A stretch of DNA of 64,000 nt from an uncultured delta proteobacterium. Its GTDB lineage: Bacteria; Myxococcota; Myxococcia; Myxococcales; Myxococcaceae. The notes under the pieces were generated by a model. It made no database searches and was not told the origin of the DNA. It was given only the letters and a program-made list of their open reading frames with translations. The stretch spans positions 1-64,000 of the forward strand of contig CAWCKH010000004.1 in the NCBI GenBank assembly GCA_963796055.1, in the 5' to 3' direction. The first letter of the stretch is position 1. Every line of letters begins with the position of its first letter. Positions 4,650 through 31,622 of this stretch are shown here, piece by piece. A program made the position numbers and the translations under genes.

Positions 4650-5012
4650 CGCGCCTCGCGAGCGCGTGTGCGGGCAGATCGAGATGGAGCCGTTCAACAT
4701 CCACGTGACCCGGCACAGGCATGCCTTCCACTTGGTCCAGCGCGGCGTGCCCCTTGGCAGCGGTGGCCAGTTGCTCGGTCAGAGCGTGCTCACGGTGACT
4801 GCCCGCTACGCGCATCTCGGCCGGAGTGCCCTGCACGATGCGGTGCGGGTGCTCGAGCCAAGCTTCCTGCCGCGTTCAGCATCGCCCGCGCCGGGTCAGG
4901 CACAAGGGAGGCCACACGCGGGAGCTGCCAAAGCGCAGGGCGGCCCAAGAGTCCTGCAATTTCGTGGGCGACCAACCGGGCTTGAACCGGTAACCCCCGG
5001 AGCCACAGTCCG
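4650..5012 (+). pseudogene. C-terminal remnant of a tyrosine integrase paralogous to 30375-31610
   Basis: ERVCGQIEMEPFNIHVTRH...LGQSVLTVTARYAHLGRS...FRGRPTGLEPVTPGATV aligns with the C-terminus of the intact integrase; N-terminal part absent. Confidence 0.9.
4965..5012 (-). repeat. att site: tRNA-His 3' half, copy 1
   Basis: tgggcgaccaaccgggcttgaaccggtaacccccggagccacagtccg; 1 mismatch to 31547-31594. Confidence 0.95.
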
Positions 5013-5197
5013 GGCTAGACCACCTGGCACTTCAAGATTCCTGTCAAGACACTCGATAACTCGATGGAATTCTTCGTGGCGAGGTGAGCACCGGACGGCT
5101 CTCGATCACTCCGTCGCGCTGAGGTAGAACGACTTCCCTCAAACCTCCCTCAATCGGCTTCGCAGTGGTCACAGCGTTCTAGCGGCGCTCGAACACG

Positions 5198-5540
5198 TTC
5201 GTCCTCACCTGCCCTCGCTGCGGGGGCACCCGCCCCGTCGTGGCAGTCGTCCTCCGTTCCGCGAGGGCCCAGGCCATCCTCGAGCACCTGCGGCTCCCCT
5301 CCAGGCGTCTCCCCCTCGCTCCAAAGCCACCTCCGCGCCCCAGCTCGGCCTCTGGTGAGTGCCGTCCGACGTTCGCGACTCGCCCCGGCCTGACCACGGC
5401 CCCGGGACTGCTCTACCCTCAACAGCGGTGAGCACCCCCGCCGAGCGCCTCCTGGTCCCGTCGCCCTCCCCTCTCCCTGGCTGAAGCGACACCCCACTTT
5501 GGTCCGCGGCTCGAAAACCCGGTTTGTTCTTCTTTGGACT
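5198..5540 (+). pseudogene. 3' remnant of an IS91/ISCR-like (Y2) transposase with possible degenerate oriIS
   Basis: VLTCPRCGGTRPVVAVVLRSARAQAILEHLRLP...PQLGLW* (one frameshift); GGTTTGTTCTTCTTT at 5521-5535; family assigned from recalled motifs. Confidence 0.55.
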
Positions 5541-5719
5541 AGTCCAAGCGCCGATGAGCGACCGCCTATCGGTGTAGCCACGCTCCGCAGCCAGCCACCC
5601 CTCTACCCTCCGGCGCCGCGGACGCTGCTTCCGCTTGCCCCTGCCCGGCCCCAGAGAGAGCATCCAGCAGTTCGCCCTCTCCACCGCGTTCACGTTCTGA
5701 CCAAACCTTCACCCAAGGA

Positions 5720-6886
5720 GTGACAGCGATGAAGACATTTCTCACTGCTGCAATCGTGCTCGGCCTTGGCCTCCCCTCGGCAGCGCGCGCCGAGGGCGTC
5801 AAGATCGGGATCATCAACTCCATGACCGGCCCCGAGGCACCGATCGGGGAAAGCCTCACCAATGGCATCAAGCTCGCGCAGGACGACCTGGCCAGGAAGA
5901 ACATCAAGGTCGAGCTGATCTGGGAGGACGACACCGGCAAGCCGCAGGTCGCGATGAGCGCCATCGAGAAGCTCGCCACCCGCGACAACGTGGCCGGGGT
6001 GGTCGGCCCCTACACCTCGGCCAGCGCCAACGCGGTCGCCAAGCAGGCGCAGCGCTACAAGGTGCCGCTCCTAGTGCCGGTGGCGGCCAAGGAAGACATC
6101 ACGCGCCAGGGCTACGAATGGGTGTTCCGGCTCAACGCCCCGGCCAACGTCTACGCCCAGGTGCTCCTCGACGCGGTCACCCAGCTCGGGAAGCCCAAGA
6201 CCATGGCCCTGATCTACGAGAACACCGACTTCGGCACCTCCACCGCCACCACCGCCAAGGAGTACGCGGACAAGAAGGGCATCAAGGTGGTGGCGGACGA
6301 ATCGTACTCCAAGGGCTCGCCCGACTACCGGTCCACGCTCACCAAGGTGAAGGCCCTGAGCCCCGACCTGGTGTTCATGGTTTCCTACGTGGCGGACGCG
6401 ATTCTCCTGATGCGACAGGCGCGCGAGATGGGCCTGAAGCCGCAGGCCTTCCTGGGCGGTGGCGCCGGGTTCACCACCGCCCAGTTCGCCAGCGAGAAGG
6501 ACATCTCCAACCACGTCTTCACCTCCACCCAGTGGACCGACGACGTGCCCTGGCCCGGGGCCAAGGACTTCGCCACCCGGTACAAGGCCAAGTTCAACAA
6601 GGAGCCGCCCTATCACGCGGCGTGCGCCTACGCGGCGATGATGATCATGGCGGAGGTGGCTTCAAAACAGGGCGGCGACCGGGAGAAGGTCCGCAGCGCG
6701 CTGGCCTCCGGCAGCTGGAACGGCATCATGGGCGACGTGAAATTCGAGAGTTACGAGGGCTACGCCAACCAGAACAAGCACCCCATGCTGGTGCAGCAGA
6801 TCCAGGACGGCAAGTATGTGACGGTGTTCCCGGCCAAGTTCGCGGGCGGCAAGAAGGGGAGCTACCCGTTCCCCGGCTGGAAATGA
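5720..6886 (+). CDS. livK: branched-chain amino acid ABC transporter substrate-binding protein
   Basis: Signal peptide; KIGIINSMTG, EDDTGKP and VVGPYTS motifs; operon context. Confidence 0.9.
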   Translation: MTAMKTFLTAAIVLGLGLPSAARAEGVKIGIINSMTGPEAPIGESLTNGIKLAQDDLARKNIKVELIWEDDTGKPQVAMSAIEKLATRDNVAGVVGPYTSASANAVAKQAQRYKVPLLVPVAAKEDITRQGYEWVFRLNAPANVYAQVLLDAVTQLGKPKTMALIYENTDFGTSTATTAKEYADKKGIKVVADESYSKGSPDYRSTLTKVKALSPDLVFMVSYVADAILLMRQAREMGLKPQAFLGGGAGFTTAQFASEKDISNHVFTSTQWTDDVPWPGAKDFATRYKAKFNKEPPYHAACAYAAMMIMAEVASKQGGDREKVRSALASGSWNGIMGDVKFESYEGYANQNKHPMLVQQIQDGKYVTVFPAKFAGGKKGSYPFPGWK

Positions 6887-6959
6887 CCGCTGGGGTTCGC
6901 CTCGCGGGCGGCGGGCGCGTTTCCGGGCGCCGCTCGCAGCGCGGATCGCACAAGCGACG

Positions 6960-7826
6960 ATGATCGTCTTCCTTCAGTCGGTGCTGAGCGGGGTGCTGAT
7001 CGGCGGGGTCTACGCGCTGGTAGGCATTGGGCTGACCATCATCTTCGGCGTGATGCGGGTGATCAACTTCGCCCACGGTGAGCTGGTGATGATCGGCATG
7101 TACCTGACCTGGATCATCTTCACCGGGCTGGCCATCGACCCGTTCGTGTCAATCCTGATCAGCATTCCGGCCATGTTCGCGGTGGGCGCGCTGATCCAGA
7201 AGACGCTCATCAACCGGGTGCTGGGGGCGCTGCCGGAGAACCAGATCCTGCTCACCGTCGGGCTCGGCCTGGTGCTGAGCAACCTGGTGATGCTCTTCTT
7301 CACCTCCGACTACCGGATCCTCACCACCAGCTACTCCTCGAGCACCCTCCGCCTAGCCGGGTTGTCGGTCTCCACGCCGCTGGCCATCTCCTTCGCCATC
7401 ACCAGCGCGATCACCGCGCTCCTGTACTGGTTCCTGCTCAAGACCGACACCGGCCAGGGGATCCGCGCCACCGCCCAGGACCGGGACGCGGCGCAGTTGA
7501 TGGGAATCAACGTCAAGCGCATGTCGCTTCTTGCCTTCGGAATCGGGGCCGCGCTGGCCGGCACCGCCGGCGCCCTCATCTCGCCCACCTACTACATCTT
7601 CCCGCAGGTGGGCGGTGTCTTCACTTTGAAGGCATTCGTGATCGTGGTGTTGGGCGGCATGGGGAGCGTCCTCGGGGCGACGCTGGGCGGGGTGATCATC
7701 GGCGTGACCGAGTCGCTGGCGGCGGTTTACATCTCCGCCGGCATGAAAGAGCTGTTCGTCTATGTGCTCTTCCTGATCGTGTTGCTGTTCAGGCCGGCGG
7801 GCCTGCTCGGCAGATCGAGAATGTGA
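6960..7826 (+). CDS. livH: branched-chain amino acid ABC permease
   Basis: GLTIIFGVMRVINFAHGE and VVLGGMGS motifs. Confidence 0.92.
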   Translation: MIVFLQSVLSGVLIGGVYALVGIGLTIIFGVMRVINFAHGELVMIGMYLTWIIFTGLAIDPFVSILISIPAMFAVGALIQKTLINRVLGALPENQILLTVGLGLVLSNLVMLFFTSDYRILTTSYSSSTLRLAGLSVSTPLAISFAITSAITALLYWFLLKTDTGQGIRATAQDRDAAQLMGINVKRMSLLAFGIGAALAGTAGALISPTYYIFPQVGGVFTLKAFVIVVLGGMGSVLGATLGGVIIGVTESLAAVYISAGMKELFVYVLFLIVLLFRPAGLLGRSRM

Positions 7827-8959
7827 TTGGAGCCATCCGAGTGAACGACCTGCCGCGCTCGCTCACCCGCTCGCGCCGTTCCACCCTGCTCTCATTCGCT
7901 GCGGTGGCGGCGGTGGCGCTGGTGCTGCTCCTCGTTCCCAGGGCGGTGCAGAGCCCATACCTTTTGCACGTGATGATCCTCTTCTTCCTCTCCGTGAGCA
8001 TGGGGGAGAGCTGGAACGTGATCGGCGGCTACACCGGCCAGTACTCGCTCGGGCACGCCGCTTACTTCGGCGCGGGGGCGTACACCACGCTGATACTCCT
8101 CCAGTACCGCCACGTCGCGCCCTGGTGGGGCGCGTGGGCCGCGGTGGGGGTCTCGCTGGTGGTGGCGCTGGTGATCGGCAGCATCTGCTTCCGGCTCCGA
8201 GGCCCCTATTTCACCCTGGCCTCGATCGCGGTGACGGAGAGCATCCGCTTGATCGCCCTCAACTGGAAGGCGGTGACCAACGGCGCAGAAGGCATCCTCT
8301 TGATGGACATCCCCCCCCTCAAGATCGGAGGGATGCTGATCACCGACTGGCTCTCGAAGGTGCCGTTCTATTACATCGGGCTGGTCCTGGCGCTGGTCAC
8401 CCTGCTGGTGAACTACCTGGTGGGCCGCTCCAAGCTCGGGTACTGCTTCCAGGCAATCCGGGAGGACCAGGACGCCGCCCACTCGCTGGGCATCAACCCC
8501 GCCTTCTACAAGAATGTGGCGCTGGCCATCTCCGCGGTCTTCACCGCCCTGACCGGGGCCTTCTACGGGCTGTACATCGGCTTCATCGACCCCCAGACGG
8601 TGCTGGGAATCGACCTCTCGGTGGAGATGGTGCTGATCTGCATCATCGGCGGCATCGGCACCAACTTGGGCCCGGTGGTGGGCGCGCTGGTGCTGGTGCC
8701 GCTCTCGGAGGCCCTGCGGGCGAACCTGTTCGCACGGCTCCTCTTCAGCGCCGGGCTGCTGGACGAGACGTCGCGCGCAGGCGCGTTCCTCAAGGAGAAC
8801 CTGGCCCACGCCCACGTGCTCATCTACGGGATCCTGGTGGTGCTGGTGATCCTCTTCATGCCCGACGGCGTGCTCGGGTTCGCGAAGAAGCTGCTCGCGC
8901 GGCGAGCGCCCGGCCCAGCCCCGGTGCGGACCTGGGAGGCCCCCGATGCAAATCCTTGA
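7823..8959 (+). CDS. livM: branched-chain amino acid ABC permease
   Basis: GYTGQYSLGHAAYFG, RLRGPYF and AIREDQDAA motifs. Confidence 0.92.
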   Translation: MIGAIRVNDLPRSLTRSRRSTLLSFAAVAAVALVLLLVPRAVQSPYLLHVMILFFLSVSMGESWNVIGGYTGQYSLGHAAYFGAGAYTTLILLQYRHVAPWWGAWAAVGVSLVVALVIGSICFRLRGPYFTLASIAVTESIRLIALNWKAVTNGAEGILLMDIPPLKIGGMLITDWLSKVPFYYIGLVLALVTLLVNYLVGRSKLGYCFQAIREDQDAAHSLGINPAFYKNVALAISAVFTALTGAFYGLYIGFIDPQTVLGIDLSVEMVLICIIGGIGTNLGPVVGALVLVPLSEALRANLFARLLFSAGLLDETSRAGAFLKENLAHAHVLIYGILVVLVILFMPDGVLGFAKKLLARRAPGPAPVRTWEAPDANP

Positions 8960-9668
8960 AATAAGGCATCTGTTCAAGTTCTTCGGCGGGCTGGCTGCGA
9001 ATGCCGACGTCAGCTTCTCGGTGGAGAAGGGGATGATCATGGGGCTGATCGGCCCCAACGGCTCGGGCAAGACCACCCTTTTCAACTGCATCACCGGCTA
9101 TTACCCGCCCTCCAAGGGAGAGGTGGTCTTCAAGGGCCAGCGGCTGCACGGGCTCCAGCCGGACCGGGTCTGCAAGCTGGGCATGGCGCGTACCTGGCAG
9201 AAGGTGCGGCCCCTGGCCAAGCTCAACGTGCTGGACAACGTGATGGTGGGAGCGCTGGCGCGCACCAACTCGCTCAAGGTCGCGCGCCAGGCGGCGATGG
9301 AGCAGCTGGAGCTGGTGCGGATGGCCCATCGCGCCGCGATGCTGGCGGGCGGGCTCTCCATCGGCGAGCGCAAGAAGCTGGAGGTGGCGCGCGTGCTCGC
9401 CACCCGGCCCGAGCTGTTGCTCCTGGACGAGGTGATGGGCGGGCTGAACCCGGCCGAGAGCGATGAGATCATCCAGCTCATCCTGGAGATCAAGGCCCGC
9501 GGGTTTACGCAGATCGTGATCGAGCACAACATGAGAGCCATCATGCGCATCTCGGACCGGATCGTCTGTCTCAACACGGGCGAGAAGCTCGCCGAGGGCT
9601 CGCCCCAGGAGATCGTCCACAACCCAGACGTGATCACCGCCTACCTCGGAGACGCCGAAGTTGCTTAG
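8946..9668 (+). CDS. livG: branched-chain amino acid ABC ATPase
   Basis: GPNGSGKTT Walker A, LLLDEV, C-terminal VITAYLG. Confidence 0.92.
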   Translation: MQILEIRHLFKFFGGLAANADVSFSVEKGMIMGLIGPNGSGKTTLFNCITGYYPPSKGEVVFKGQRLHGLQPDRVCKLGMARTWQKVRPLAKLNVLDNVMVGALARTNSLKVARQAAMEQLELVRMAHRAAMLAGGLSIGERKKLEVARVLATRPELLLLDEVMGGLNPAESDEIIQLILEIKARGFTQIVIEHNMRAIMRISDRIVCLNTGEKLAEGSPQEIVHNPDVITAYLGDAEVA

Positions 9669-10365
9669 CGTCCGAAAGTTGAGCTTCAGCTACGGCGACC
9701 TGAAGGTCCTGTGGGACATCGACCTGGAGGTGAACCAGGGGGAGATCGTCACCGTGGTGGGGGCCAACGGGGCCGGCAAATCAACCACCCTGCGCAACAT
9801 CTCTCGCCTGGTGAAAGCTTCGAGCGGGGAGGTAGTCTTCGACGGGGTGGACCTCCTCCGGCTCGAGCCGCACCAGGTGGTGGAGCGGGGCATCGTTCAG
9901 GTGCCGGAGGCCCGGCGCATCTTCCCGGAGATGACGGTGCTCGAGAACCTGCGCATGGGCTCCTTCGTGAAGGCGACGCGAAAGGATCGGGCGCGGAACA
10001 TGGAGCGGGTCTTCACGCTCTTCCCGCGGCTCAAGGAGCGCGAGCGCCAGCTGGGGGGCACCATGTCCGGCGGCGAGCAGCAGATGCTGGCCATCGCCCG
10101 CGGGCTGATGGCCAACCCCAGGCTCCTCCTCCTCGACGAGCCCTCGCTGGGCCTCTCTCCGCTGTTCGTCAAGCACATCTTCGAGATCATCAAGGAGATA
10201 AGCCGGCAGGGCATCACCATTCTGCTGGTCGAGCAGAACGTCTACCAATCGCTCAAGATCGCCCACCGCGCCTACGTGGTGGAGACCGGGCGGGTGGTGC
10301 TCTCGGGAAAGGGGCAGGAGCTGCTCGCCAACGAGCAGGTGAGGAAGGCATTTCTGGGAATGTGA
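9661..10365 (+). CDS. livF: branched-chain amino acid ABC ATPase
   Basis: GANGAGKST, MSGGEQQM and LLLDEPSLGL motifs. Confidence 0.92.
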   Translation: MLSVRKLSFSYGDLKVLWDIDLEVNQGEIVTVVGANGAGKSTTLRNISRLVKASSGEVVFDGVDLLRLEPHQVVERGIVQVPEARRIFPEMTVLENLRMGSFVKATRKDRARNMERVFTLFPRLKERERQLGGTMSGGEQQMLAIARGLMANPRLLLLDEPSLGLSPLFVKHIFEIIKEISRQGITILLVEQNVYQSLKIAHRAYVVETGRVVLSGKGQELLANEQVRKAFLGM

Positions 10366-10369
10366 AGCC

Positions 10370-10804
10370 ATGAAAAGAAAGACAGACGTCGGGGATTGGA
10401 TGACCGTCAAGCCGATCACCATCGAGGAGGACACCTCGATCATGGAGGCGATCCACCTGCTCAAGGAGAAGAACATCCGCCGGCTGCCGGTGATGCGCCG
10501 GGGGAAGATCGCCGGGGTGGTCACCGAGAAGATGCTCCTCACCTTCACGCCCGGGAAGTCGACCTCGTTGAACGCCTGGGAGGCGCACTACCTGCTCTCC
10601 AAGACGCCCGTGAAGGAGGCGATGAACCCTCGGCCGCACACGGTGACGCCCACCACCCCGGTGCGCGAGGCGGCGAAGCTCCTCCACGACCGCAAGCTGA
10701 ACGGGGTGCTGGTGACGAACGAGAAGGGCGACCTGGTCGGCATCTTCACCATCACCAACGCACTGGAGGCGCTGATGGCCTCCGCCAACGCCGACGGCGG
10801 GTAG
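10370..10804 (+). CDS. CBS-domain protein (AcuB-like)
   Basis: Two CBS repeats (IRRLPV...GVVT; LVGIFT). Confidence 0.85.
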   Translation: MKRKTDVGDWMTVKPITIEEDTSIMEAIHLLKEKNIRRLPVMRRGKIAGVVTEKMLLTFTPGKSTSLNAWEAHYLLSKTPVKEAMNPRPHTVTPTTPVREAAKLLHDRKLNGVLVTNEKGDLVGIFTITNALEALMASANADGG

Positions 10805-10852
10805 CGGCCGCGCGGAAGGGGCGAACTTCCGTGGCCTCTGATAGAGGAGGGG

Positions 10853-11377
10853 TGGGCTGAGCGAGCAGACGTTGTACGTCTGGCGGCGACGGTTCGGGAC
10901 GATGGGCGCCGACGACTCGAAGCGTCTGAAGCAGCTCGAGACCGAGAACAACCGGCTGAAGAAGCTGCTCGCCGAGCGCGACCTCGAGGTCGAGGTGCTC
11001 AAGGAGATCGCCGCAAAAAAAAATGGTGAGCGCGTCCATGCGACGCCCATGGGTAGAGTACGCCCGTGGTCGAGGGCTCTCCTGTCGGCGGTCGTGCAAG
11101 CTGTTGCGCGTGGCGCGCTCCTCCCTGGGCTACGTCTCGAGGAAGGAGCATCTGGATGGGCCCATTCGGGCCCGAATTCGGGAGCTCTCGGCGCAGTTCC
11201 CGAGGTACGGCTACCGGCGGGTGCGGATTTTCCTCGAGCGGCAGGGCTGGAAGATGAGCCCGGAGCGGGCGTACCGCCTCTGGCGACACGCCGAGCTTCA
11301 ACGGGAAGTTCCGGGACGGGGGAGGTCAGTCGCGGGATCCTCAACCTGACGGTGGTCCAGAAAACGGGGGCACGTCA
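10853..11377 (+). mobile_element. IS3-family remnant: partial orfA, A9 slippery run, internally deleted orfB, right end
   Basis: EQTLYVWRRRFG...RLKQLETENNRLKKLLAE; AAAAAAAAA at 11015-11023; PRYGYRRV; terminal ...GGGGGCACGTCA. Confidence 0.85.
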
Positions 11378-11772
11378 CCCTCAATCCTCCCTCAATCACC
11401 TTCGCGGTAGCTTCGGTCCGATCGGGGGGAGCACCGGCTCTCGTCACACGCTGGCCGTCCGGGTGCTCACTGGCGCCCCGGTCGACTACGGCATTAGATC
11501 CTGCGTGGATTTGCCGACTATCCGCGTCCAGCAGGCCGCCGGTCTCGCCAGTCTGGCTGAGTGGATGGACCGCCACTGCTCCGGAGAGCTTGAGTTCACA
11601 AACGCCTTCTGCCGCGTCCAGAGCCGCATGTTGCTGGAGCGTCTTGATGAAGCCGCCGAGGTCGAGTCCGCGTGGCGCGCCAAGCGCTGCCGCCCTGCCT
11701 TGCATCTCGTCCCGACCTGGCCTTTCCTGATGGAGATAACGCCGGAACGAGGGGGCACACGTGCGATCCAGA

Positions 11773-21887: not shown

Positions 21888-21898
21888 CGTGGGGCCAT

Positions 21899-23284
21899 AT
21901 GAAGACCGACACCCAAATCCAAATCTCCAACCTCCGCACCACCCTGAACGGAAAGGTGATCGGCTCCGACGACGCCCGGTACGACCACGTGCGCCGAGTG
22001 TTCTTCACCGGCTTCGACCGTCGGCCCGCGGCCATCGTCCGCGTCGGCGACGCGTTGGACGTCGCGCGCGTCGTGACGCTGGCACGGGAGACCGGGGCCG
22101 AGCTCGCGGTGCGAAGCGGCGGCCACAGCCGGGCGGGGTACGGTACGTCCGAGGGCGGGATCGTCCTCGACCTCTCCGCGATGAACGCGGTCGAAATCGA
22201 CGCGGATGGCCGAGCAGCATGGGCGCAAACCGGGGTCAAGGCTGGCGCCTACACCAGGGTGACCGGCGAACGCGGCCTTGCGACCGGGCTCGGCGACACC
22301 GCGAGCGTCGGCCTCGGTGGGATCACGCTCGGCGGCGGCATCGGCTTCCTCGTCCGCAAGCACGGCCTCGCCATCGACGACGTGCTTGCGGCCGAGGTGG
22401 TGACCGCCGACGGCGAGCTTCTCGAGGTGGACGAGCATGCCCACCCCAATCTCTTCTGGGCCGTCCGGGGCGGCGGCGGCAACTTCGGTGTCGTGACCAG
22501 ACTCCGTCTCCGGCTGCACAAGATCGACCAGGTCCTCGGCGGGATGCTACTGCTCCCTGCGAGCGCCGACGTGATCACCGGGCTGGTCGCCGCGACAGAT
22601 GCGGCGTCCGAGGACCTGTCCGTGATCGCGAACGTATTGAAGGCCCCGCCGCTGCCCTTCATCCCGCCGGAACAGCACGGCAAGCCCGTGGTGATGGCCC
22701 TTGTCGTCTACGCGGGCGAGCCCGCGGCTGGTGAGAAGGCGATCGCGCCGATTCGCACCCTCGCCACTCCGGTCGCCGACATGGTACGGCCGATCCGCTA
22801 CCCGGAGATGTACGCGGGGCCGGAAGCTCCTGGTCCGGCGTTCGCCGTGGGAACGAACCTGCTCGTCGATGAGCTCTCGGCGGCCGGGGCAGGGACGATC
22901 CTCGCGCACCTCGAGACCGCGACTGCCGCGATAGCCGCCGTCCAAGTGCGCGTCCTCGGGGGCGCGATGGCGCGCGTCGCCGACGGCGCGACCGCGTTCG
23001 GCCACCGGCGAGCGAAGCTCATGGTGAACATTGCCGCCATGGATGGGCGCGTCGAGGAGCGCGCGGAGCATGAGACATGGGCCGCCGGGCTGGCCGAGGC
23101 GCTCTCCCGTGGAGTGACGACTCCGGCCTACGTCGGGTTCCTCGGCGACGAGGGCGAGGAGGGTGTCCGCCGCGCGTACCCGCCTGCGACCCTGGATCGC
23201 CTCGCGCAGGTGAAGCGTCGGTACGACCCCGAGAACCTCTTTCACCTGAACCTGAACGTCGCGCCCGACGTGAGAGGAGCTTGA
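21899..23284 (+). CDS. FAD-linked oxidoreductase (berberine-bridge-enzyme-like)
   Basis: VRSGGHS, LFWAVRGGGGNFGVVT and KRRYDPENLF motifs. Confidence 0.9.
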   Translation: MKTDTQIQISNLRTTLNGKVIGSDDARYDHVRRVFFTGFDRRPAAIVRVGDALDVARVVTLARETGAELAVRSGGHSRAGYGTSEGGIVLDLSAMNAVEIDADGRAAWAQTGVKAGAYTRVTGERGLATGLGDTASVGLGGITLGGGIGFLVRKHGLAIDDVLAAEVVTADGELLEVDEHAHPNLFWAVRGGGGNFGVVTRLRLRLHKIDQVLGGMLLLPASADVITGLVAATDAASEDLSVIANVLKAPPLPFIPPEQHGKPVVMALVVYAGEPAAGEKAIAPIRTLATPVADMVRPIRYPEMYAGPEAPGPAFAVGTNLLVDELSAAGAGTILAHLETATAAIAAVQVRVLGGAMARVADGATAFGHRRAKLMVNIAAMDGRVEERAEHETWAAGLAEALSRGVTTPAYVGFLGDEGEEGVRRAYPPATLDRLAQVKRRYDPENLFHLNLNVAPDVRGA

Positions 23285-23385: not shown

Positions 23386-23434
23386 GTCGCGGGATCCTCA
23401 ACCTGACGGTGGTCCAGAAAACGGGGGCACGTCA
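23386..23434 (+). repeat. solo IS3 right end identical to 11329-11377
   Basis: 49 bp exact repeat gtcgcgggatcctcaacctgacggtggtccagaaaacgggggcacgtca. Confidence 0.9.
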
Positions 23435-23954
23435 CGATGCCTCACACTGGTCCAGCGCGACGTGCCTTTGGCGCCAGAGCCAACCGGAGCAACCGAGCGC
23501 GCCTCTCTGGCGGACAAATTGCAGACACTTCTCCAGGAACTCGAGGCCTAAAGTCACGTCCCGCAATCAATTGCGGGATCGGCCTTTTGGGGCTCGAAAT
23601 GGCTCTCGAATCCGCCCGAAAATACGCTCCACAATGCGCTCCCAGATCGGGCGCATTGTCGGGCCGTTTGCCGGGCCGAATGCCGGGCGGCTTCGAGCAG
23701 CCGTCGTCAGGCAGGTCGCGCCCTTCCGCCCTCGCCCACCCGGTTCGCCTGCAGCACCGGGAGTACCCCTGCGTTTCCCGCTCACGCCCTCGCAACGATG
23801 AAACTGAGGGCGTGAGCGGGAAACTCTGGGTACCCCTGAATTCGAACGGGGTGGGCGAGGGCGAAAGGACCCTCATTTGTGGAGTCCTGATGAGGAAAGG
23901 TCTCGAGATGGAGTGAGTGAGGAAGGGAGGGCAGTGAGAAAGGTGTGAGCAACG

Positions 23955-24215
23955 ATGGAACGTGCATCCCCCGAGCAGGTCGAGCAAGCCGGTCGGCGCG
24001 GGCGGCTGAGCCGTAAGGACCGACAGCTGGTTGGCGCACTTGGACTCTGTCGGTACCTGAACATCGGGCAAGTCATCGAGCTCGGAGTGGGCGCCAAGAC
24101 GGGGAAGGCGACCGGGTACAGGCTCCGTGGACTGGCTGGCGAGGAAACCAGGTCCAAGGTGCGAGCGTCGAGGCCCGCGCTGTTGAGACGCTTTCCCTTC
24201 CATTCCTTCCCTCGC
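23955..24215 (+). pseudogene. truncated replication-relaxation (Replic_Relax-like) protein N-terminus
   Basis: RLSRKDRQLVGALGLCRYLNIGQV resembles the LTxRDxxxLxxLxxxRxLTxxQ start of that family; the ORF degenerates afterwards. Confidence 0.45.
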
Positions 24216-24375
24216 GCCGCACGAAATCATTTGGACTGCCGTTCAGCTACCTCCACCTGGCGGCCATCGTCGACCTCTGCTCTCGTTTCTGGGGATTCAG
24301 TTGCAGTCGGCCCACCACCGACTCGCCAAGCCCTAGTGAGTCTCGGAAGTCTAAGTGAGCCCGGGAAACGGAACC

Positions 24376-25572
24376 CTAGAACATCGGTGTGGGGACGTTC
24401 CCCCAGCCCGTCCCCGGGCCCAGGTCCTTCAGGTTGAGCACTGTCAGGCTGTGCATGTCGAGGTCCACGAAGAATTGCGGCACGCGCTCCTGGTCAATCG
24501 CGAACAGCGACGCCCGTCGGCTCAGATCGCCGTGGTGGCCGACCCGGAGGAAGATGATCCTCCTGGCGGTTGGAGACGTGGCCGCCGCCTCACCCGGGGT
24601 GTGATGCACCATCTCGTGGCCACCTTCAAGGTGGCGAAACGGGTGGAAGATCCAGTCCGCGATCATCGCGATGGTCTGATTGTGCTCGTAGAGCCGGAAG
24701 GCGGGGTCGGTGTCTGCAATCATCCCCTGCATCACGTAGTTGGGGGGCACGATGTAGCCGAGAATGGCCCCCCGCTCCTCCGCGAGCCGCGACCCGATCT
24801 CGGGTATCCGCAGCACGTCCGGCATCCGATGCTGGACCATGACCGCATCACCGGGGAGGATGGCCAGCACCGAGACGCGGCCATCCGACCAGATCGGCAA
24901 CCTCGCGACGGTGTACGAGCGCAGCGCGAAGGCGGTTCCGATGGAGAGGACCAGGAGCGAGGTCAGCCCGAGGCTGCCTCGGAGCACTGGAGTGCGTGGG
25001 GCGGGGATCTTCCTAGCGACCTGCTCCAGCGGCCTCGGAAGAAACATGCCGGTCCGCGAGATGTAGGCCGAGTACTGCTCCCCGAACGCAGCCACCATCC
25101 GCCGCTCCTCGTCCCGTGCGAGGAAGGAGTAGAGGCCCATCATCACCGCCCAGAGCACAACCGTGAGGAATCGCGGCCACAGAATCGCTAGCCCGAGCCC
25201 AGCGACCGCAAGCGCGGCATACTGCGGGTGCCTGATCCACCTGTACGCGCCGCCCAGGACCGGCCCCCGTCGCAAGAACTTGTGGGAGTACACCTGGGCG
25301 GCGCAGACCAGGAACAAGACCGTGCCGCTCACGAAGAGGACAGAGCCAGCAACTCGCAGCGCCCTGAGGAACGCGTCGGGCGGTAGAACCATGTGCGGGA
25401 GAAAGAAGTCTGCCAGCCAGTGTGTGGCCGGCCAATTCGCGAGGAAGAGCAGGAACGGATTGAACGCGGCGTAAAAGAAAGCCGCGAATGGGCTGATCAT
25501 CACGAGCACTTCCAGCCCGATGATGAAGTACAGCACGATGACGCTGCCGATGAACCGTCGTGACCCACTCAT
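24376..25572 (-). CDS. ICMT/PEMT-family membrane methyltransferase-domain protein
   Basis: GAYRWIRHPQY...EERRM..FGEQYSAY...MFLP; multiple TM helices. Confidence 0.8.
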   Translation of the reverse strand: MSGSRRFIGSVIVLYFIIGLEVLVMISPFAAFFYAAFNPFLLFLANWPATHWLADFFLPHMVLPPDAFLRALRVAGSVLFVSGTVLFLVCAAQVYSHKFLRRGPVLGGAYRWIRHPQYAALAVAGLGLAILWPRFLTVVLWAVMMGLYSFLARDEERRMVAAFGEQYSAYISRTGMFLPRPLEQVARKIPAPRTPVLRGSLGLTSLLVLSIGTAFALRSYTVARLPIWSDGRVSVLAILPGDAVMVQHRMPDVLRIPEIGSRLAEERGAILGYIVPPNYVMQGMIADTDPAFRLYEHNQTIAMIADWIFHPFRHLEGGHEMVHHTPGEAAATSPTARRIIFLRVGHHGDLSRRASLFAIDQERVPQFFVDLDMHSLTVLNLKDLGPGTGWGNVPTPMF

Positions 25573-25949: not shown

Positions 25950-26105
25950 TCACCGCCCACTTCGCCGGATGAAGTCCTCAATGTCCGCGACTCGCAGCCG
26001 AATCGAATTGGACACGCGGACGTGCCGGAGCTCGCCCCGCTCGCACAGTCCGTAGACGGTCGCGGTGCTCACCCCCAGCCGGGTAGCCACCTCACGGACG
26101 GACAT
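25950..26105 (-). CDS. excisionase-like HTH protein, probably the tail of an IS66-interrupted ORF
   Basis: MSVREVATRLGVSTATVYGLCERGELRHVRVSNSIRL. Confidence 0.75.
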   Translation of the reverse strand: MSVREVATRLGVSTATVYGLCERGELRHVRVSNSIRLRVADIEDFIRRSGR

Positions 26106-26278
26106 GAGGCGCCCTGCCCCGCTCTCCACAACACCGAGCGGCAGTTTGGGTCCCATTAGGGTCCCACGCGGAGCCATCCGGGAGCGTCCATTGCGTCCAT
26201 CGAGACGAGATGACCCGACGTAACCGACCGACGACGGACGTCTTGAGCCGTAGCGGCTGACCGGCAGAGTCGGGCGCC

Positions 26279-26608
26279 ATGCCCCGACGACCCAGCACCG
26301 AGGAGTGGATCGCCCTCCTGGCCGAGTTCGAGCAGAGCGGCCTGCAGCAGAAGGAATTCTGCGCCAAGCACGACCTCTCCATCGCCGCATTTCAGTATTG
26401 GATGTACAGGAAGGCCAAGAAGCACTCCGAATCGGCAGCCAAGCTTTCCGAGTCCTTCCTGCCCATCGAAGTCGTAGGCTCTGCCGCGCCTCCAGCGCGG
26501 CCAGGGGGAGTGGTTGTGGAGATCGCGCTCGCCGGAGGCATCGTGGTCCGGCTGCCGGCCGGGACCGAGCCCAGGTACGTGAGCGAGCTGCTTCGGGCGC
26601 TGCGGTAG
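26279..26608 (+). CDS. tnpA: IS66 accessory protein TnpA
   Basis: SGLQQKEFCAKHDLS..FQYW, FLPIEV, VEIAL..GIVVRL. Confidence 0.85.
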   Translation: MPRRPSTEEWIALLAEFEQSGLQQKEFCAKHDLSIAAFQYWMYRKAKKHSESAAKLSESFLPIEVVGSAAPPARPGGVVVEIALAGGIVVRLPAGTEPRYVSELLRALR

Positions 26609-26615
26609 CCGCCCG

Positions 26616-27215
26616 GTGCTGCTCCTCCCGCGGGCAGTCCGCATCCTCCTCGCCGCGAAGCCCGTGGACATGCGCAACAGCATCGACGGGCTCGCCGCCA
26701 TCATCCGTAACGAGTGGAAGGAGGACCTCTACGCAGGGGACCTCTTCATCTTCGTCAGCCGGCGAGGCGATAGGACGAAGGTGCTGACCTGGGACAACGG
26801 GGGCTTCGTCCTGTTCTACAAGCGGCTCGAGCAGGGCCGCTTCCGGCTCCCGGCCTTCCGCGAGGGTGCGCTCGGAGCGCGGCTGCAGAGCAGCCAGCTC
26901 GCCATGCTGCTCGACGGCATCGACCTCAGCCGCGTCCGCCGGCCCAAGCAGTGGGTCCCCCCGCACCCAGTTTCCAACGAGGGGGGAGGTATAATCTCTA
27001 CTGCGCGTTGGCACCAGGCTCCGAAGACCACGAGTGTGCGTGGCGAGACGAAGCCGAACGGCTCGCAGCGGAGCTCGCTCAAGTCCAGGACCGACAGCAG
27101 CAGCTCGAGGGTCAGCTCGCTGCGCTCCAGCGCCACATCTTCGGGCAGCGCAGCGAGAAGATGCCGCCGGTCGCCGAGCAGCTCCGGGCAGAGAAGCCGG
27201 TCGACCCCGCGGTGA
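26616..27215 (+). CDS. tnpB: IS66 TnpB (reads past the usual stop into tnpC; possible indel)
   Basis: PVDMRNSIDGL, KVLTWDNGGFVLFYKRLEQGRF, LLDGID. Confidence 0.85.
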   Translation: MLLLPRAVRILLAAKPVDMRNSIDGLAAIIRNEWKEDLYAGDLFIFVSRRGDRTKVLTWDNGGFVLFYKRLEQGRFRLPAFREGALGARLQSSQLAMLLDGIDLSRVRRPKQWVPPHPVSNEGGGIISTARWHQAPKTTSVRGETKPNGSQRSSLKSRTDSSSSRVSSLRSSATSSGSAARRCRRSPSSSGQRSRSTPR

Positions 27216-28471
27216 CGCAGGCGACGCGGCGCGCACGCCGCGAAGCGAGGGCCGCGCTCCCCGAGCGCCTCGTCGAGCACCGAGTCGCTGACGAGAAGCG
27301 GACCTGCCCGAAGTGCGGGAGCTCGGAGCTGCGGCCCGTGGGCGAAGGGAAACGGACGTACTTGTACGAGTACGTGCCGGCCCGCTTCGAGCGACAAGTG
27401 CACGTGCAAGAGACGCTGGCCTGCCGATGCGGCGAAGGCCTCGTCACCGCGGACGGGCCTCGCCGCGTGGTGGACAAGTGCCAATACGGGCCTGGCCTGC
27501 TCGCCCACGTCGTCACGGCGAAGTGCGCCGACAGCATTCCTTTGTACCGCCAGGCCAAGGCGCTGGCCCGCGCCGGCGTGCCCATCAACCGCACCACGCT
27601 CGGAGACCTCTTCCACACCACAGCGGACGTGCTCGCGCCCTTGGCCGCTCGGATTCTCCAGCGGGTGCGCGACGCGCAGCTGGTCCGAGCGGATGAAACG
27701 CCCATCCGCGTCCTTGCGGAGGAGAAGACACGTCGCGGCTACATCTGGACGTTTCGGACGGAGAAGCTCATCGCCTACGAGTACAGCGCGTCCCGGAGCG
27801 GTGAGACGCCCGCGAGGGTGCTCGAAGGCACGAAGGGCTATCTGCTTGTCGACGCGTACAGCGGCTACAACGCCGTCACCCTGCCCGATGGACGCATCCG
27901 CGTGGGCTGCTGGGCGCACGTGCGGCGGAAATTCTTCGACGCGCTCGGCACCGCCCCCGAGGCCCAGGGCATGCTGGACCTCATCCTTGGCCTGTACCGA
28001 GTCGAGCACGCCGCCCGCGACGCGGGCGTCCTCGGCCAGCCGGAGCACCTCCAGCTCCGAGCTGAGCAGAGCGTCCCGCTTCTCGGGAAAATTCGCGACT
28101 GGCTGGCCACACAGGTCCCGCTCCATCCGCCGAAGTCTCCGCTGGGCGAGGCGATCCGCTACGCACGTGGGCAGTGGGAGGCGCTGGGCCACTTCGTGGA
28201 GGGTGCCTCGCTGCCGCTCGACAACAACGCTTCGGAGAACGCGCTCCGCACCGTCGCCCTCGGTCGGAAGAACTTCCTCTTCGTGGGGCACGACGAAGCC
28301 GGAGCCGGACTCGCTGGTCTCTACTCCCTCGTGGCCACGTGCCAGGCGAACGGAGTCAATCCGGAGGCGTACCTCGCGGATGTCCTCCTCCGCGTGCAGA
28401 GCCACCCGGCGGCGCGGATCGACGAGCTGCTCCCGGACCGGTGGATGCAGCCAGCTCCGAACACCTCCTGA
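27008..28471 (+). CDS. tnpC: IS66 transposase TnpC (start approximate)
   Basis: FGQRSEK, CPKCG, ADETP, GCWAHVRRKF, DNNASENALR and LLP motifs. Confidence 0.92.
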   Translation: MAPGSEDHECAWRDEAERLAAELAQVQDRQQQLEGQLAALQRHIFGQRSEKMPPVAEQLRAEKPVDPAVTQATRRARREARAALPERLVEHRVADEKRTCPKCGSSELRPVGEGKRTYLYEYVPARFERQVHVQETLACRCGEGLVTADGPRRVVDKCQYGPGLLAHVVTAKCADSIPLYRQAKALARAGVPINRTTLGDLFHTTADVLAPLAARILQRVRDAQLVRADETPIRVLAEEKTRRGYIWTFRTEKLIAYEYSASRSGETPARVLEGTKGYLLVDAYSGYNAVTLPDGRIRVGCWAHVRRKFFDALGTAPEAQGMLDLILGLYRVEHAARDAGVLGQPEHLQLRAEQSVPLLGKIRDWLATQVPLHPPKSPLGEAIRYARGQWEALGHFVEGASLPLDNNASENALRTVALGRKNFLFVGHDEAGAGLAGLYSLVATCQANGVNPEAYLADVLLRVQSHPAARIDELLPDRWMQPAPNTS

Positions 28472-28607
28472 CCGCTCAGCTCGGCCGGAGGATCCAAGCT
28501 CGATCGGTTACGATGACCCGACTACAGGCTCAGTTCTCTCGACGGGTTGGACGCTCGCGGACATGGATGGACGGACCGGATGCCCCCTCCGGAACCAAAG
28601 GCCAGGG

Positions 28608-29987
28608 GTGCTGTACCAGGACATCGCTGACCAAAACCGGTTCAGGACATCGCTGACAGTTTCGGCTGCTCGACTGTCGCGTGCCCTGGAAAGAGCAGCG
28701 AGTCATGAGCCACAAGCTGGAGTTCATCGAGAAGGCCAGCGCGATGGGGGCGAACATCTCGGCGCTCTGCAGGGAGTACGGCATCTCCCGGCAGACCGGC
28801 CACAAGTGGCTTCGGCGCTTCCGCGCGCGGGGATACACGGGCCTCGTCGAGCAGAGCCGTCGCCCGCTCTCGAGCCCGCTCACCACCGGCGAGGAGATTG
28901 TCGTCCGCATCCTCGAGCTGCGCGACCAGCACCAGACCTGGGGGCCGGACAAGATTGCCCGGGTGCTTCGGCGCACGCTGGGCGAGGACGGGCCGAGCAA
29001 GAGCACCGTAGCGCGGGTCCTGCATCGGCTCGGGAGGCTAAGGCGACACCGACCGCGCGTACGAGTGTGGAGCGTCGACGGGCGCCCGCGGGTCGAGGTG
29101 CACGGGCCGAACGACCTGTGGACGATGGACTTCAAGGGCTGGTGGCGAGCTCGAAACCGCGAGCGGTGCGAGCCGCTCACGGTGCGAGACGGGTTCAGCC
29201 GGAAGGTCCTCGCCGTGACCCTCCTCGGCTCGGTGAGGGCCGAAGAGGTCCGGCGTGTCCTCCGGAGCTTGTTCTTGCGGCACGGCCTGCCAGCCGCCAT
29301 TCAGAGCGACAACGGCACGCCATTCGTATCCACCCGCGGCCGCGGCGGACTGAGTCGGCTCTCGGCGTGGCTCGTCTCGCTCGGGATCCGTGTCGTGCGC
29401 TCACGTCCCGGGTGCCCGCAGGACAACGGCGGGCACGAGCGGATGCATCGGGACCTGAGCGAGCTGGAGCTCAACCCCGCCCGTACCCGCCGCGCTCAGC
29501 AGCGCGCGTGCGATCGTTGGGTGATCGAGTTCAACGAGGTCCGCCCCCACGATGCGCTCGGTGGCAAGACGCCAGCGGAGGTCTATCGCGACTCGGAGCG
29601 TCGCTCGCTCGACCCGCTCGTCCCGAGCTACCCGCCCGAGTGGAAGACGCGCCTGGTCTCGAAGGTGGGGACCATCTCGGTGAACGACGACGTGGTGTTC
29701 GTCAGCACGGCCCTCGCGGGCCAGATCGTCGGTCTCAAGCAGGAAGGGATCCTGCGCTGGCGAGCTCACTTCTTCGGCGTCGACCTCGGGATGATCGAGA
29801 TCGCCCCGCTGGCGAACGTGCTGACACCCGATGACGTCAGCTCCGTTACACCCGTCAACGCACCGTACTCAGAGGCTGTCAACGCCACTGTCACCCAGGA
29901 CGCGCTGCTGAACGCGCGAGCCGTAAACGCCTGAGAAACCCGCCGTCACCCTGCAGTCAACTGTCAGCGATGTCTTGACTCGTTCCA
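28608..29987 (+). mobile_element. IS481-family element (ends approximate)
   Basis: Repeated CAGGACATCGCTGAC at left, inverted GTCAGCGATGTCTTG at right. Confidence 0.8.
28681..29934 (+). CDS. IS481-family DDE transposase
   Basis: MPWKE, LCREYGISRQTGHKW, WTMDFKG, SDNG, PQDNGGHER and NEVRPH motifs. Confidence 0.92.
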   Translation: MPWKEQRVMSHKLEFIEKASAMGANISALCREYGISRQTGHKWLRRFRARGYTGLVEQSRRPLSSPLTTGEEIVVRILELRDQHQTWGPDKIARVLRRTLGEDGPSKSTVARVLHRLGRLRRHRPRVRVWSVDGRPRVEVHGPNDLWTMDFKGWWRARNRERCEPLTVRDGFSRKVLAVTLLGSVRAEEVRRVLRSLFLRHGLPAAIQSDNGTPFVSTRGRGGLSRLSAWLVSLGIRVVRSRPGCPQDNGGHERMHRDLSELELNPARTRRAQQRACDRWVIEFNEVRPHDALGGKTPAEVYRDSERRSLDPLVPSYPPEWKTRLVSKVGTISVNDDVVFVSTALAGQIVGLKQEGILRWRAHFFGVDLGMIEIAPLANVLTPDDVSSVTPVNAPYSEAVNATVTQDALLNARAVNA

Positions 29988-30035
29988 GGCCTCTATCGCG
30001 CGCCTGGAAGCCGATTCTTGGCGACGAGCGATGTC

Positions 30036-30064
30036 TTGTAAACGAGTTCTATATGGGTTATACA
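30036..30064 (+). promoter_or_regulatory. candidate sigma70-like promoter for xis-int
   Basis: TTGTAA-17 bp-TATACA in an AT-rich patch about 60 bp upstream of the xis-like ATG. Confidence 0.35.
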
Positions 30065-30123
30065 TAGGACCTAGCGGGCGAGCAGCATGCTCTGGCCAGG
30101 AGTGGGTCTTGGCGACGGACGAA

Positions 30124-30363
30124 ATGCAGACACCCCAGCTTCTACTCACCGTCGAGGAGGCTGCTCCGCTGTTCCGACGCTCTCGGAGCTCGCTCTACGC
30201 AGCCATCCAAAGAGGTGAAGTGAAGATCGGCGTTGTCCGGATCGGGTCCAAGATTCTGATTTCCCGTCCCGCCATCCTCCGTTGGCTCGATAGCGCCGGT
30301 CTCCCGTCCTCGGAATCAGGGGGCACTCGAGAGACCCTGCGCCGCCCGGCCGACTCGAACTAG
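30124..30363 (+). CDS. excisionase-like HTH protein
   Basis: LLTVEEAAPLFRRSRSSLYAAIQRGEV..VRIGSKILI; directly upstream of int. Confidence 0.8.
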   Translation: MQTPQLLLTVEEAAPLFRRSRSSLYAAIQRGEVKIGVVRIGSKILISRPAILRWLDSAGLPSSESGGTRETLRRPADSN

Positions 30364-30374
30364 CATCCCAGGCG

Positions 30375-31610
30375 ATGAGTGTCCGCAAGCGCACCTGGCA
30401 AACGCGTGGCGGCGAGACGCGGTCCGTCTGGTTCATCCAGTTCACGTACCGTCACCCCGACGGTTCCGTCACCGCCATCCGACAGCGAGCACAGACCAAC
30501 ACCGAGCGTGCAGCCAAGGACGAGGAACGTGAACTGCGGGCCGCGCTCCTGGCAGGCACCTACGGCAAGCGAACTGACATCCTGACGCTCCGACAGCTCG
30601 CGGACGAGTTCTTCCGGCTCCATCGCCCAAGAGTGAAGCGCTCGACCATGGAGTACTACCGGTCGAAGATTCTGAGCCACGTCGTGCCGGCCCTCGGCGA
30701 CTTGAAGGTGACGGCCGTGTCGACGGCCACGGTTGCCGACTTCACTGCTGAGCTCTTCGCCAAGTGCAGTCCCGGCGGCGTCAACTCCATCCTCCGCGCG
30801 TTCCGGGCGTTGCTCGGGTTCGGCGTGGAGCAAGGCCTCCTCGAGAAAGTGCCCGACGTTCAAATGGTCGAGGAGCCCAACCCGGATGAGGAGCTTCAAT
30901 TCGTCTCGGCCGCCGAGACCGCTTCGTTCCTCGCGGCGGTGCTGGAGTTCGAACCCGAGTGGCACCTGTTCTTCGTCGTGGCCTTCCGTACCGGCCTACG
31001 AATCGGCGAGCTCATCGAGCTCCGCTGGAAGGACGTGAACCTCGAGCGCCACGAGCTCCATGTGCGCCGCGCGAGGTACGATGGGGACATCACCACGCCC
31101 AAGAGCGGGCGCGCACGGATCGTCCCCTTCCCGTCCGAGGTGGCCAGAGCCCTACGGCCCATTGTCGCTGCGACCGAGCGACTCGTGTTCGGCTACGAGG
31201 ACGGGACTCCCTTCGACCGTTACGTGGCGCGCCCCCCCATCGAGCGCGTCTGCCAGCGCATCGAGATGCAGCCGTTCAACATCCACATGACCCGACACAG
31301 CTATGCCTCTCACTTGGTCCAGAGAGGCGTGCCGCTGGCCACGGTGGCCAAGCTGCTCGGCCAGAGCGTGCTCACGGTGACTGCGCGCTATGCACACCTG
31401 GGCAGGAGCGACCTCCACGATGCGGTGCGGGTGCTCGAGCCCAGCTTCCAACCGCGTCCAGCGCCGCCCGCGACAAGTCGAAGCACAAGGGAAGCACACG
31501 CGGGAACTGCTGAGGCGCCGAGCGGACCAAAAGTCCTGCAATTTCCTGGGCGACCAACCGGGATTGAACCGGTAACCCCCGGAGCCACAGTCCGGTGCTC
31601 TACCAATTGA
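30375..31610 (+). CDS. tyrosine recombinase/integrase; 3' end overlaps tRNA-His antisense
   Basis: RTGLRIGEL, TPKSG, HMTRH, LGQS and ARYAH motifs; N-terminal arm-binding-like region. Confidence 0.95.
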   Translation: MSVRKRTWQTRGGETRSVWFIQFTYRHPDGSVTAIRQRAQTNTERAAKDEERELRAALLAGTYGKRTDILTLRQLADEFFRLHRPRVKRSTMEYYRSKILSHVVPALGDLKVTAVSTATVADFTAELFAKCSPGGVNSILRAFRALLGFGVEQGLLEKVPDVQMVEEPNPDEELQFVSAAETASFLAAVLEFEPEWHLFFVVAFRTGLRIGELIELRWKDVNLERHELHVRRARYDGDITTPKSGRARIVPFPSEVARALRPIVAATERLVFGYEDGTPFDRYVARPPIERVCQRIEMQPFNIHMTRHSYASHLVQRGVPLATVAKLLGQSVLTVTARYAHLGRSDLHDAVRVLEPSFQPRPAPPATSRSTREAHAGTAEAPSGPKVLQFPGRPTGIEPVTPGATVRCSTN

Positions 31611-31622
31611 GCTATGATCGCC
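31549..31622 (-). tRNA. tRNA-His(GTG)
   Basis: Cloverleaf GGCGATCATAGCTCAATTGGTAGAGCACCGGACTGTGGCTCCGGGGGTTACCGGTTCAATCCCGGTTGGTCGCC with G-1:C73 pair. Confidence 0.97.

Follow-up and report, generated by a model that had tools for sequence, protein, structure and literature searches.

Among the described systems close to the locus reported here are the cis-mobilizable elements (CIMEs). In the ICESt1/ICESt3 model, as the pertinent part of PMC5704250 presents it, elements lose their integration and transfer genes, keep their attachment (att) sites, and are stacked by later arrivals, so that an integrative mobilizable element (IME) gives way to a CIME and then to accretion. Another precedent is the ssrA locus of Dehalococcoides, for which the sections of PMC3146451 drawn on here report 15 islands without an integration module, along with over a dozen repeats in direct orientation that lie no more than 100 kb from the one RNA gene. 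Here, we describe an array of att-bounded units at the tRNA-His gene of an uncultured soil member of the Myxococcaceae (assembly GCA_963796055.1). The window, by which we mean the whole stretch of 64,000 nucleotides analyzed (contig CAWCKH010000004.1, positions 1 to 64,000), is the start of contig C4 of this 5.5-Mb genome, G000. Most probably, the locus represents CIME-type accretion on an unusually large scale, in which there has been recent traffic between species. The explanation that we prefer, at a probability of about 0.64, is the tandem accretion of IMEs that erode to att-bounded CIMEs and are remobilized by visiting elements.

The insertion target is an intact tRNA-His(GTG) gene on the minus strand (31548..31621), identified by ARAGORN and Rfam; Rfam found no family besides tRNA. 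The 3' half of this gene recurs in direct orientation, the copies beginning at 4965, 14770, 16389, 19304, and 20319, with successive spacings of 9805, 1619, 2915, 1015, and 11228 bp. Their identity to the reference copy is 92 to 100% and stops 2 to 5 bases past the 7-base anticodon loop, which reproduces the repeats, unit sizes, and end points given in a preliminary description of this DNA. We infer that crossover occurs within the anticodon loop. Seven more copies with the same direction lie outside the window, near the ends of separate contigs (three on C7, three on C5, and a degenerate one on C2), bringing G000 to 12 partial copies on four contigs, all in one shared direction. When 58 tRNA and tmRNA genes of G000 were tested, tRNA-His had 11 partial copies at 88% identity or more, whereas no other gene had more than 2 and 45 had none; given this excess, the repeats are not due to chance.

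The array is a genus trait. The congener G004 has 14 partial tRNA-His copies, divided 12 and 2 between two contigs; seven further congeners have one to five each (G002, G005, G006, G007, G009, G010, and G011), and a scan of metagenomes added 39 junction loci. An assembly artefact might be suspected from the fact that the arrays of G000 and G004 both reach contig ends and that G004 contains many indels. Nevertheless, this explanation is scarcely credible, as the copies differ in both sequence and flanks, the G004 array is independent, and the metagenomes contain 39 junction loci. Moreover, contigs from run X1, which may be the source sample, are nearly identical to pieces of several units, albeit with none spanning the array, and no contig did so in any of the 4 runs examined out of 20.

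Junctions were compared in a set of 94 (11 intact tRNAs and 83 internal), along with 39 complete att-to-att units of 0.2 to 11.2 kb (median, 3.4 kb), 5 of which duplicate others. The comparison supports the earlier view that the junctions are attP-like, each consisting of a proximal arm, a core, and a distal arm, with the arms kept at fixed spacing. Proximal ends of units fall into many types, distal ends into few. The commonest distal arm, D0, occurs at 42 of the 83 internal junctions; it is 143 bp long, ends in a pair of TCCCTCA repeats, and has an exact core-to-TGAGGG spacing in 24 of 35 distinct copies. Conservation reaches at least 90% in 55 of its 143 columns, where a uniform star model, which ignores relatedness, predicts 10. 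The D0 pattern was present in 4 of 208 family genomes, all from the same genus, and in none outside it. Within the window, the TCCCTCA repeat is found on the 9.8-, 2.9-, and 1.6-kb units, while the 1.0-kb unit has a 13-bp D0 stump and lacks both this repeat and the GCACA repeat described below. The cores are informative as well. A compensated G-C allele of the T stem occurs in 25 of 55 distinct internal cores and in none of the 10 intact tRNAs of the set, and it is the allele of the intact tRNA-His in three other Myxococcaceae (L113-L115). This foreign allele points to an origin of many ends in other hosts; it may also reflect a single ancestral change. No strong hairpin was detected at oriIS, the end of the IS91-type tails discussed below, or at the core-arm join.

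Only the tRNA-proximal, 11.2-kb unit holds both an intact integrase gene and an xis-like gene, as had been noted before. Int A is a tyrosine integrase of 411 amino acids (30375..31610, plus strand; PF00589), and the adjoining HTH_17 gene (30031..30363, plus strand) scores 29.3 bits against TIGR01764, whose cut-off is 28.8. The best fold match of Int A is Tn1549 Int, and its predicted N-terminal domain, three strands and a helix, is probably arm-binding. A GCACA repeat with an 11-bp period lies at both ends of the Int A unit and probably provides the arm sites of Int A. The Int A clade has LGQ where most integrases have LGH; because the motif is common to the clade, it is not damage to the window copy. 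In Mx8-type integrases, the int open reading frame (ORF) spans the att core. The Int A ORF likewise reads through the core, as do five homologues (P0003, P0005-P0007, and P0009), and excision changes its last residues (406 shared; 411 versus 413 amino acids); it differs from the Mx8 type in that just the last 5 to 7 residues, in a low-confidence tail, would change. Integrases of the Mx8 type that extend across attP are named in the portion of PMC4383910 used here. An Int A homologue (53% identity), in another member of the Myxococcaceae (L222:10001-11214), reads through tRNA-His, and a second att copy is absent from the 10 kb upstream. Viral contigs contained neither the core nor the D0 pattern, and Int A relatives there were at most 37% identical.

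The preliminary description proposed that a single resident integrase, Int A, could take up, excise, and rearrange all of the units, with the tRNA acting as attI and the junctions as attP. This would account for the position of the sole intact integrase next to the tRNA, for cores that are 92 to 100% conserved, and for the presence of one unit at different positions in two species. However, Int A has a predicted arm-binding domain, and of the five window units the 11.2-kb unit alone bears the Int A arm repeat at its two ends. Most cargo common to several genomes has other boundaries. Furthermore, no full integrase was found at the tRNA-proximal position in G002, G003, G004, G006, or G010, and an integrase that is missing beside the tRNA in five congeners is not a fixed platform. 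We therefore consider a single integrase for all units improbable; from its arm sequences, Int A would fit only the 11.2-kb unit and blocks bounded by GCACA arms.

Most units have probably decayed. In agreement with the earlier view of the units as integrase-less, 38 of the 39 complete units have no full integrase, and they retain their att ends; the one unit with a full integrase of Int A type is the tRNA-proximal unit of the window. Stumps of Int A-type genes, 25 to 489 bp long and with scattered endpoints, occur at many proximal ends. In G004, an Int A orthologue (85% identity) lies in a distal unit and is cut by insertion sequence (IS) elements. The proximal unit itself holds IS66 and IS481 elements, an IS3-type end, a long hairpin, and a truncated relaxase, an intact relative of which occurs in G006 (L226) as part of a backbone of relaxase, regulator, and xis; an integrase match lies immediately past this backbone. 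The int stumps and the relaxase fragment show descent from autonomous elements by deletion, for Int A-type ends only. The preliminary description had listed simple decay among the signs that would speak against its proposal, and such signs are present in part, namely, the scattered int stumps, the IS cuts, and the truncated relaxase. It had not noticed the copies outside the window, the int read-through, the int stump at 4659-4964, the IS91 tail, or the IS66, IS481, and relaxase sequences of the proximal unit.

We propose the following course of events. Small IMEs belonging to several integrase specificity groups would insert at the tRNA-His anticodon loop; their backbone in this genus would comprise an integrase, xis, a small regulator, a Replic_Relax-type relaxase, and a hairpin. 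Each arrival would bring a working tRNA 3' half and displace earlier units outward, a stacking order that is visible in the structure and whose enzymology is presumed by analogy with known tDNA islands. Deletions and IS elements would then wear the residents down to the borders of useful genes, often sparing core and arms, so that the units become CIME-like. Stumps and conserved arms are what we observe; selection may have been at work. A visiting element whose integrase fits the arms could excise units singly or in blocks, after which they could be carried to other species and re-enter the same tRNA. The features of a tDNA island (a restored tRNA, direct 3' fragments reaching the anticodon loop, and a tyrosine integrase) are found here, the full set in the proximal unit alone.

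Comparison among species provides evidence that units move. Core DNA of G000 is 79 to 81% identical to that of G004 and G006, whereas cargo shared between genomes is 93 to 98% identical. One whole unit is shared: the 2.9-kb unit is found from att to att in G004 at 93% identity (indel errors counted), with the same ends and other neighbours. A whole unit at 93% identity in hosts that are about 80% alike indicates that integrase-less units do move, by a route that may be the one outlined above. The G004 copy keeps a 53-bp oriIS piece at 17918 that is missing from G000, and runs X2 and X5 also carry 53 extra letters at this point. The earlier suggestion that small cassettes move and are reordered thus holds for this unit, as an exception: among 64 cargo breakpoints between genomes, which are not independent, 6 fall at att cores against 2.9 expected (p about 0.05), and many are close to gene edges. 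Shared cargo mostly has other ends, in one case being inverted and in another lying without a His att nearby. Whole-unit transfer therefore occurs and is not the chief route of cargo exchange. Att cores and IS91 tails were both rejected as general cargo boundaries, with 6 of 64 breakpoints each against 2.9 and 4.2 expected.

One might instead view the units as dead, immobile remnants whose cargo is exchanged by homologous recombination through core, arm, and IS91-tail homology. Repeats of 200 to 500 bp at 75 to 90% identity are abundant, G004 has internal duplications, and the first 65 bp or so of the 2.9-kb unit arm diverge more than the rest between G000 and G004, all as such exchange would have it. 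We think this highly improbable, given that arm conservation is block-wise and spacing-exact, that the proximal boundary of the 2.9-kb unit falls at the core, and that the hosts are merely about 80% identical.

Several observations weigh against accretion with remobilization. Neither 201 family genomes nor a protein search yielded an intact integrase for the TCCCTCA arm, which leaves its mobilizer hypothetical. G006 contains a second integrase stump, for which the other 200 family genomes gave no relative at E<=1e-12; a weak search of longer proteins likewise gave none at E<=1e-15. In addition, D0 far outnumbers the proximal arm that matches it and is combined with many types of proximal end, and this excess with mixed partners is unpredicted by simple decay. 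Arm conservation could have been inherited from autonomous ancestors. Finally, no excised circle was seen; a contig of run X5 joins 19364 to 16506, with 47 letters on the short side, and a D0-type neighbour explains it equally well.

The D0 arm is repeatedly joined to the 3' end of an IS91/ISCR-family transposase gene. In the genus genomes, 12 of 17 D0 junctions have an IS91 tail within 450 bp, mostly at one fusion point (19 of 42 for all sources, duplicates included). We propose that the dominant distal arm goes back for the most part to a single fusion event of this kind. Tails are also found 3' of D1 and D2 arms. In the window, a tail with its oriIS end, followed by GGAC (5200..5539, plus strand), matches an apparently intact Y2 ORF of 484 amino acids on another contig (C5:86309-87763); the window has the transposase tail only, 84% identical to this ORF over 45 residues. 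The C5 protein, which is of the Y2/HUH type with a zinc domain, scores above the cut-offs for PF04986 and PF14319; the NCBIfam cut-offs for IS91 and ISCR clade Ia were not reached. The C5 ORF is preceded by a partial tRNA-His core and a D1 arm, which is suggestive of one-ended capture of neighbouring DNA. This gene belongs to a 3-kb integrase-less unit at tRNA-Asp (L106:7505-10755; G000 C5:85505-88755), which contains an xis-like remnant, the partial His core and D1 arm, the intact-looking IS91-family gene, oriIS, and a gene for 159 amino acids. In the literature searched, with few subscription journals covered, no multi-unit array was found in which an oriIS is joined to a tRNA att arm. The fusion is the new, unusual part of the array, and a role in cassette making is an unproven candidate.

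Such a role would be that of a rolling-circle cassette factory. An IS91/ISCR transposase supplied in trans would start at a D0-fused oriIS, copy through arm and core into the next unit, and stop at GGAC or GGAT; the resulting circle, with a complete attP made up of one unit's distal arm and its neighbour's cargo and proximal arm, would be inserted at the tRNA by an integrase. This route would multiply D0, accounting for its excess and its varied partners, and yield small chimeric units without integrases, and the tail-bearing D0 junctions and the tails behind D1 and D2 are in keeping with it. So are the sharp oriIS ends: of 41 distinct flanks, 28 begin with GGAC or GGAT, and 3 in the whole set appear to be false hits of the motif. 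As far as the relevant part of PMC13181058 goes, the target of IS1294b is GTCC, of which GGAC is the complement, and IS91 undergoes one-ended transposition. An apparently intact Y2 transposase is available on C5, and in two genomes the ABC transporter cargo begins right at oriIS. The genomic island GIsul2 offers a parallel, in which, according to PMC9376610, an att site lies just upstream of an ISCR/CR element in an att-bounded CR2-sul2 unit and variable cargo follows oriIS. Nevertheless, the same source describes that unit as being excised and integrated in trans by the GIsul2 integrase rather than moved by the CR2 protein.

Other evidence also counts against rolling-circle production, which we judge to be unlikely. 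The left ends of aligned Int A stumps do not start at GGAC or GGAT, and termination there was rejected as the cause of the stumps; the 6 of 64 cargo breakpoints at IS91 tails compare with 4.2 expected (p 0.25). Neither of the two longer, core-less D0 arms of G004 has a GGAC start, one of them being cut by an IS3 element, and core-less arms were discarded as rolling-circle products because their boundaries misfit. All 44 tail pieces in the arrays point toward the tRNA. Genome-wide, however, 38 of 45 IS91-family BLAST pieces in G000 follow the replichore, with the transposase strand on the C-rich strand and a switch near dnaA (C4:1.355 Mb), although these pieces cluster in islands and are not independent. 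This bias explains the uniform orientation without coupling to att, so that orientation was set aside as evidence for such coupling. Also, no pre-insertion allele was found at 95% identity or above. A broader formulation, that one myxobacterial genus practices two-enzyme, attC-free gene capture, in which oriIS-arm fusion yields attP circles that passing tyrosine integrases stack at tRNA-His and that spread among species about 80% alike, is one that we would entertain with considerable doubt.

Among known systems, the array fits CIME accretion as treated in the corresponding part of PMC5704250, with which it shares chimeric junctions, integrases of different families, and possible carriage by a neighbour. 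It differs in the number of junctions (12 to 14 rather than a few), in unit size (median, 3.4 kb), and in having several families of arms, the dominant one being joined to an IS91 tail. Dehalococcoides ssrA resembles it in that the histories of cargo and integration modules are discordant; there, the sections cited above describe a serine integrase, a T-loop site, and 16 islands that keep the module, whereas the present array has a tyrosine integrase, an anticodon-loop site, and an integrase in 1 of 39 units. GIsul2, in the portion already cited, targets guaA and has three att sites and a full rcr2, in contrast to the tRNA, the dozen sites, and the transposase tail found here. The tycheposons of Prochlorococcus (bioRxiv 10.1101/2020.12.28.424599, in the part used here) also undergo successive tRNA-anchored integrations that leave partial tRNAs and fragmented integrases; they have replication modules and one integrase clade per tRNA, compared with a relaxase-type backbone and long, well-kept arms in the array.

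The preliminary description suggested an integron analogue without attC hairpins; by four tested features, the array is not an integron. Int A scores 50.6 bits against TIGR02249 (IntI), with a cut-off of 265. The attC consensus is RYYYAAC/GTTRRRY, and no complementary pair was found in 1-31546, the shuffled mean being 1.1. Integron cassettes are co-oriented and served by one promoter, while strands are mixed here, and no sigma-70 site was detected at 4900-5760. The earlier statement that cargo from 5.7 to 23.3 kb faces the tRNA is correct locally, all called genes there being on the plus strand, and does not extend further: cargo is on the minus strand at 1-4.9 kb and 24.4-25.5 kb, and plus and minus counts are 11 and 18 for G004 units and 5 and 7 for metagenome units, approximate figures because the gene caller, a simple codon model, misses some genes. 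The array is integron-like only loosely, in its newest-first stacking at one site and its units without their own recombinase; it differs in having no IntI, attC, or fixed integrase platform and in its multigene units of mixed orientation.

The outermost unit in the window runs off the contig. Its cytochrome-oxidase-like cargo (COX1/COX2; 40..3303, minus strand) ends at an IS91 tail piece (3240-3303) and recurs within other units at 98% identity in G006 and 87% in G004 and G010. The unit closes with the 3' stump of an Int A paralogue and its proximal arm (4659..4964, plus strand; 306 bp, 83 to 84% nucleotide identity), followed by an att core and D0 (4965..5154, plus strand), in which the 143-bp arm has the TCCCTCA pair at its end. 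Behind the oriIS end comes a branched-chain ABC transporter operon with a CBS gene (5541..10806, plus strand), which is 97.8% identical in G006 and lies there behind another oriIS copy with no His att nearby. The oriIS-cargo join (5532-5547) is a perfect palindrome, and G006 has the same two palindrome arms 64 bp apart, which suggests deletion between inverted repeats. An IS3-type remnant (10872..11408, plus strand) abuts an orphan pair of D0 arm sites (11378-11408). This orphan arm marks a lost junction, and the 9.8-kb unit is thus probably two fused units. The remnant shares an identical end with an IS3-type end in the proximal unit (11329-11378 and 23386..23435), the family of which was assigned from terminal sequence and the adjacent transposase fragment; this 50-bp exact repeat (11329/23386) was considered as a second att and rejected, since it reads as such an end. 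The 9.8-kb unit finishes with a Pfam-supported NHL-repeat protein of 935 amino acids (11761..14568, plus strand), whose gene contains ten 165-bp repeats and was mostly missed by the gene caller.

All three small units and their cores are on the plus strand. The core at 14770..14817 has the compensated G-C T-stem allele and precedes the 1.6-kb unit (14818..16388), which comprises arm D0, a gene for 328 amino acids (15068-16054) with a signal-peptide-like start, and a proximal end of type P2. The gene recurs at 94 to 96% identity in G004, G002, and L045 with other boundaries and is inverted in L045. After the core at 16389..16436, the 2.9-kb unit (16437..19303) contains D0 (16437-16577), an IS91 tail piece (16623-16682), a membrane protein of 281 amino acids, and a PGAP1-like alpha/beta hydrolase of 400 amino acids. 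PGAP1-like hydrolase genes recur in or near arrays (window 17996-19198; L221; L220; L005:17604-18806); G000 and G004 have second copies at 91 to 96%, and several congeners have a paralogue at 65%. The core at 19304..19351 leads into the 1.0-kb unit (19352..20318), made up of the D0 stump, a lipoprotein-like gene for 125 amino acids (19710-20087) that is 87 to 89% identical in G004 (at another contig position) and G005, and a degenerate proximal end.

The proximal unit begins with a core and distal arm D1 (20319..20480, plus strand), the GCACA repeat of which is as at the Int A end. Esterase and FAD-linked oxidase cargo follows (20964..23284, plus strand); its G004 counterpart is 95% identical, follows what is left of the same type of distal arm, and has another proximal end. 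Upstream of the relaxase fragment, a long hairpin (23722..23868; z -8.8) is a candidate oriT and recurs at other tRNA islands of G000. The fragment (23955..24230, plus strand) is the N-terminal 92 amino acids of a Replic_Relax-type relaxase, 48% identical to the intact PF13814 protein of 410 amino acids in G006. Together, hairpin and fragment form a module (23484-24209) seen in at least 7 other places in G000, at islands beside several tRNAs and tmRNA; it is characteristic of small IME-like elements that form one family and have a 108-amino-acid regulator and xis. Further on lie membrane methyltransferase-like cargo (PEMT/ICMT; 24376..25536, minus strand), which faces away from the tRNA, a second small xis-like helix-turn-helix gene (25950..26129, minus strand), and IS66-family (26218..28512, plus strand) and IS481-family (28602..29987, plus strand) elements, both with near-identical copies elsewhere in G000.

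Some observations concern neighbouring tRNA genes and the second array. The G000 array may have split a tRNA-His/tRNA-Arg pair, as a sequence read as tRNA-Arg lies directly 3' of tRNA-His in other Myxococcaceae (L027, L028, L029, and L113-L115). At L002:13415-15950 (G000 C5:228415-230950), two genes for tyrosine integrases run toward each other and overlap at tRNA-Arg(TCG), where they meet. A cluster of nine tRNA genes at G000 C4:3118970-3121462, several of them redundant, is possibly of mobile origin. On contig C13 of G004 (L015-L016), a 3.4-kb segment is duplicated between two units at 96% identity, and identical ISL3-like ends occur at two junctions; the two longer core-less D0 arms are also there.

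Arrays of this kind would escape tools such as Islander, which, as described in the part of PMC4383910 cited above, demands that each unit have its own integrase and be longer than 2 kb and lists only 4 tandems of three or more; stacks of integrase-less units are missed by such filters. The locus offers comparative evidence that an integrase-less, att-bounded unit has moved whole between species, and the array provides a defined system for learning how arm sites restrict which integrase moves which unit. If the oriIS-arm fusion is functional, the ISCR-plus-att design of the GIsul2 resistance islands extends to an environmental gene-collecting array, and the fusion would explain the origin of small chimeric cassettes in a system that lacks attC sites.

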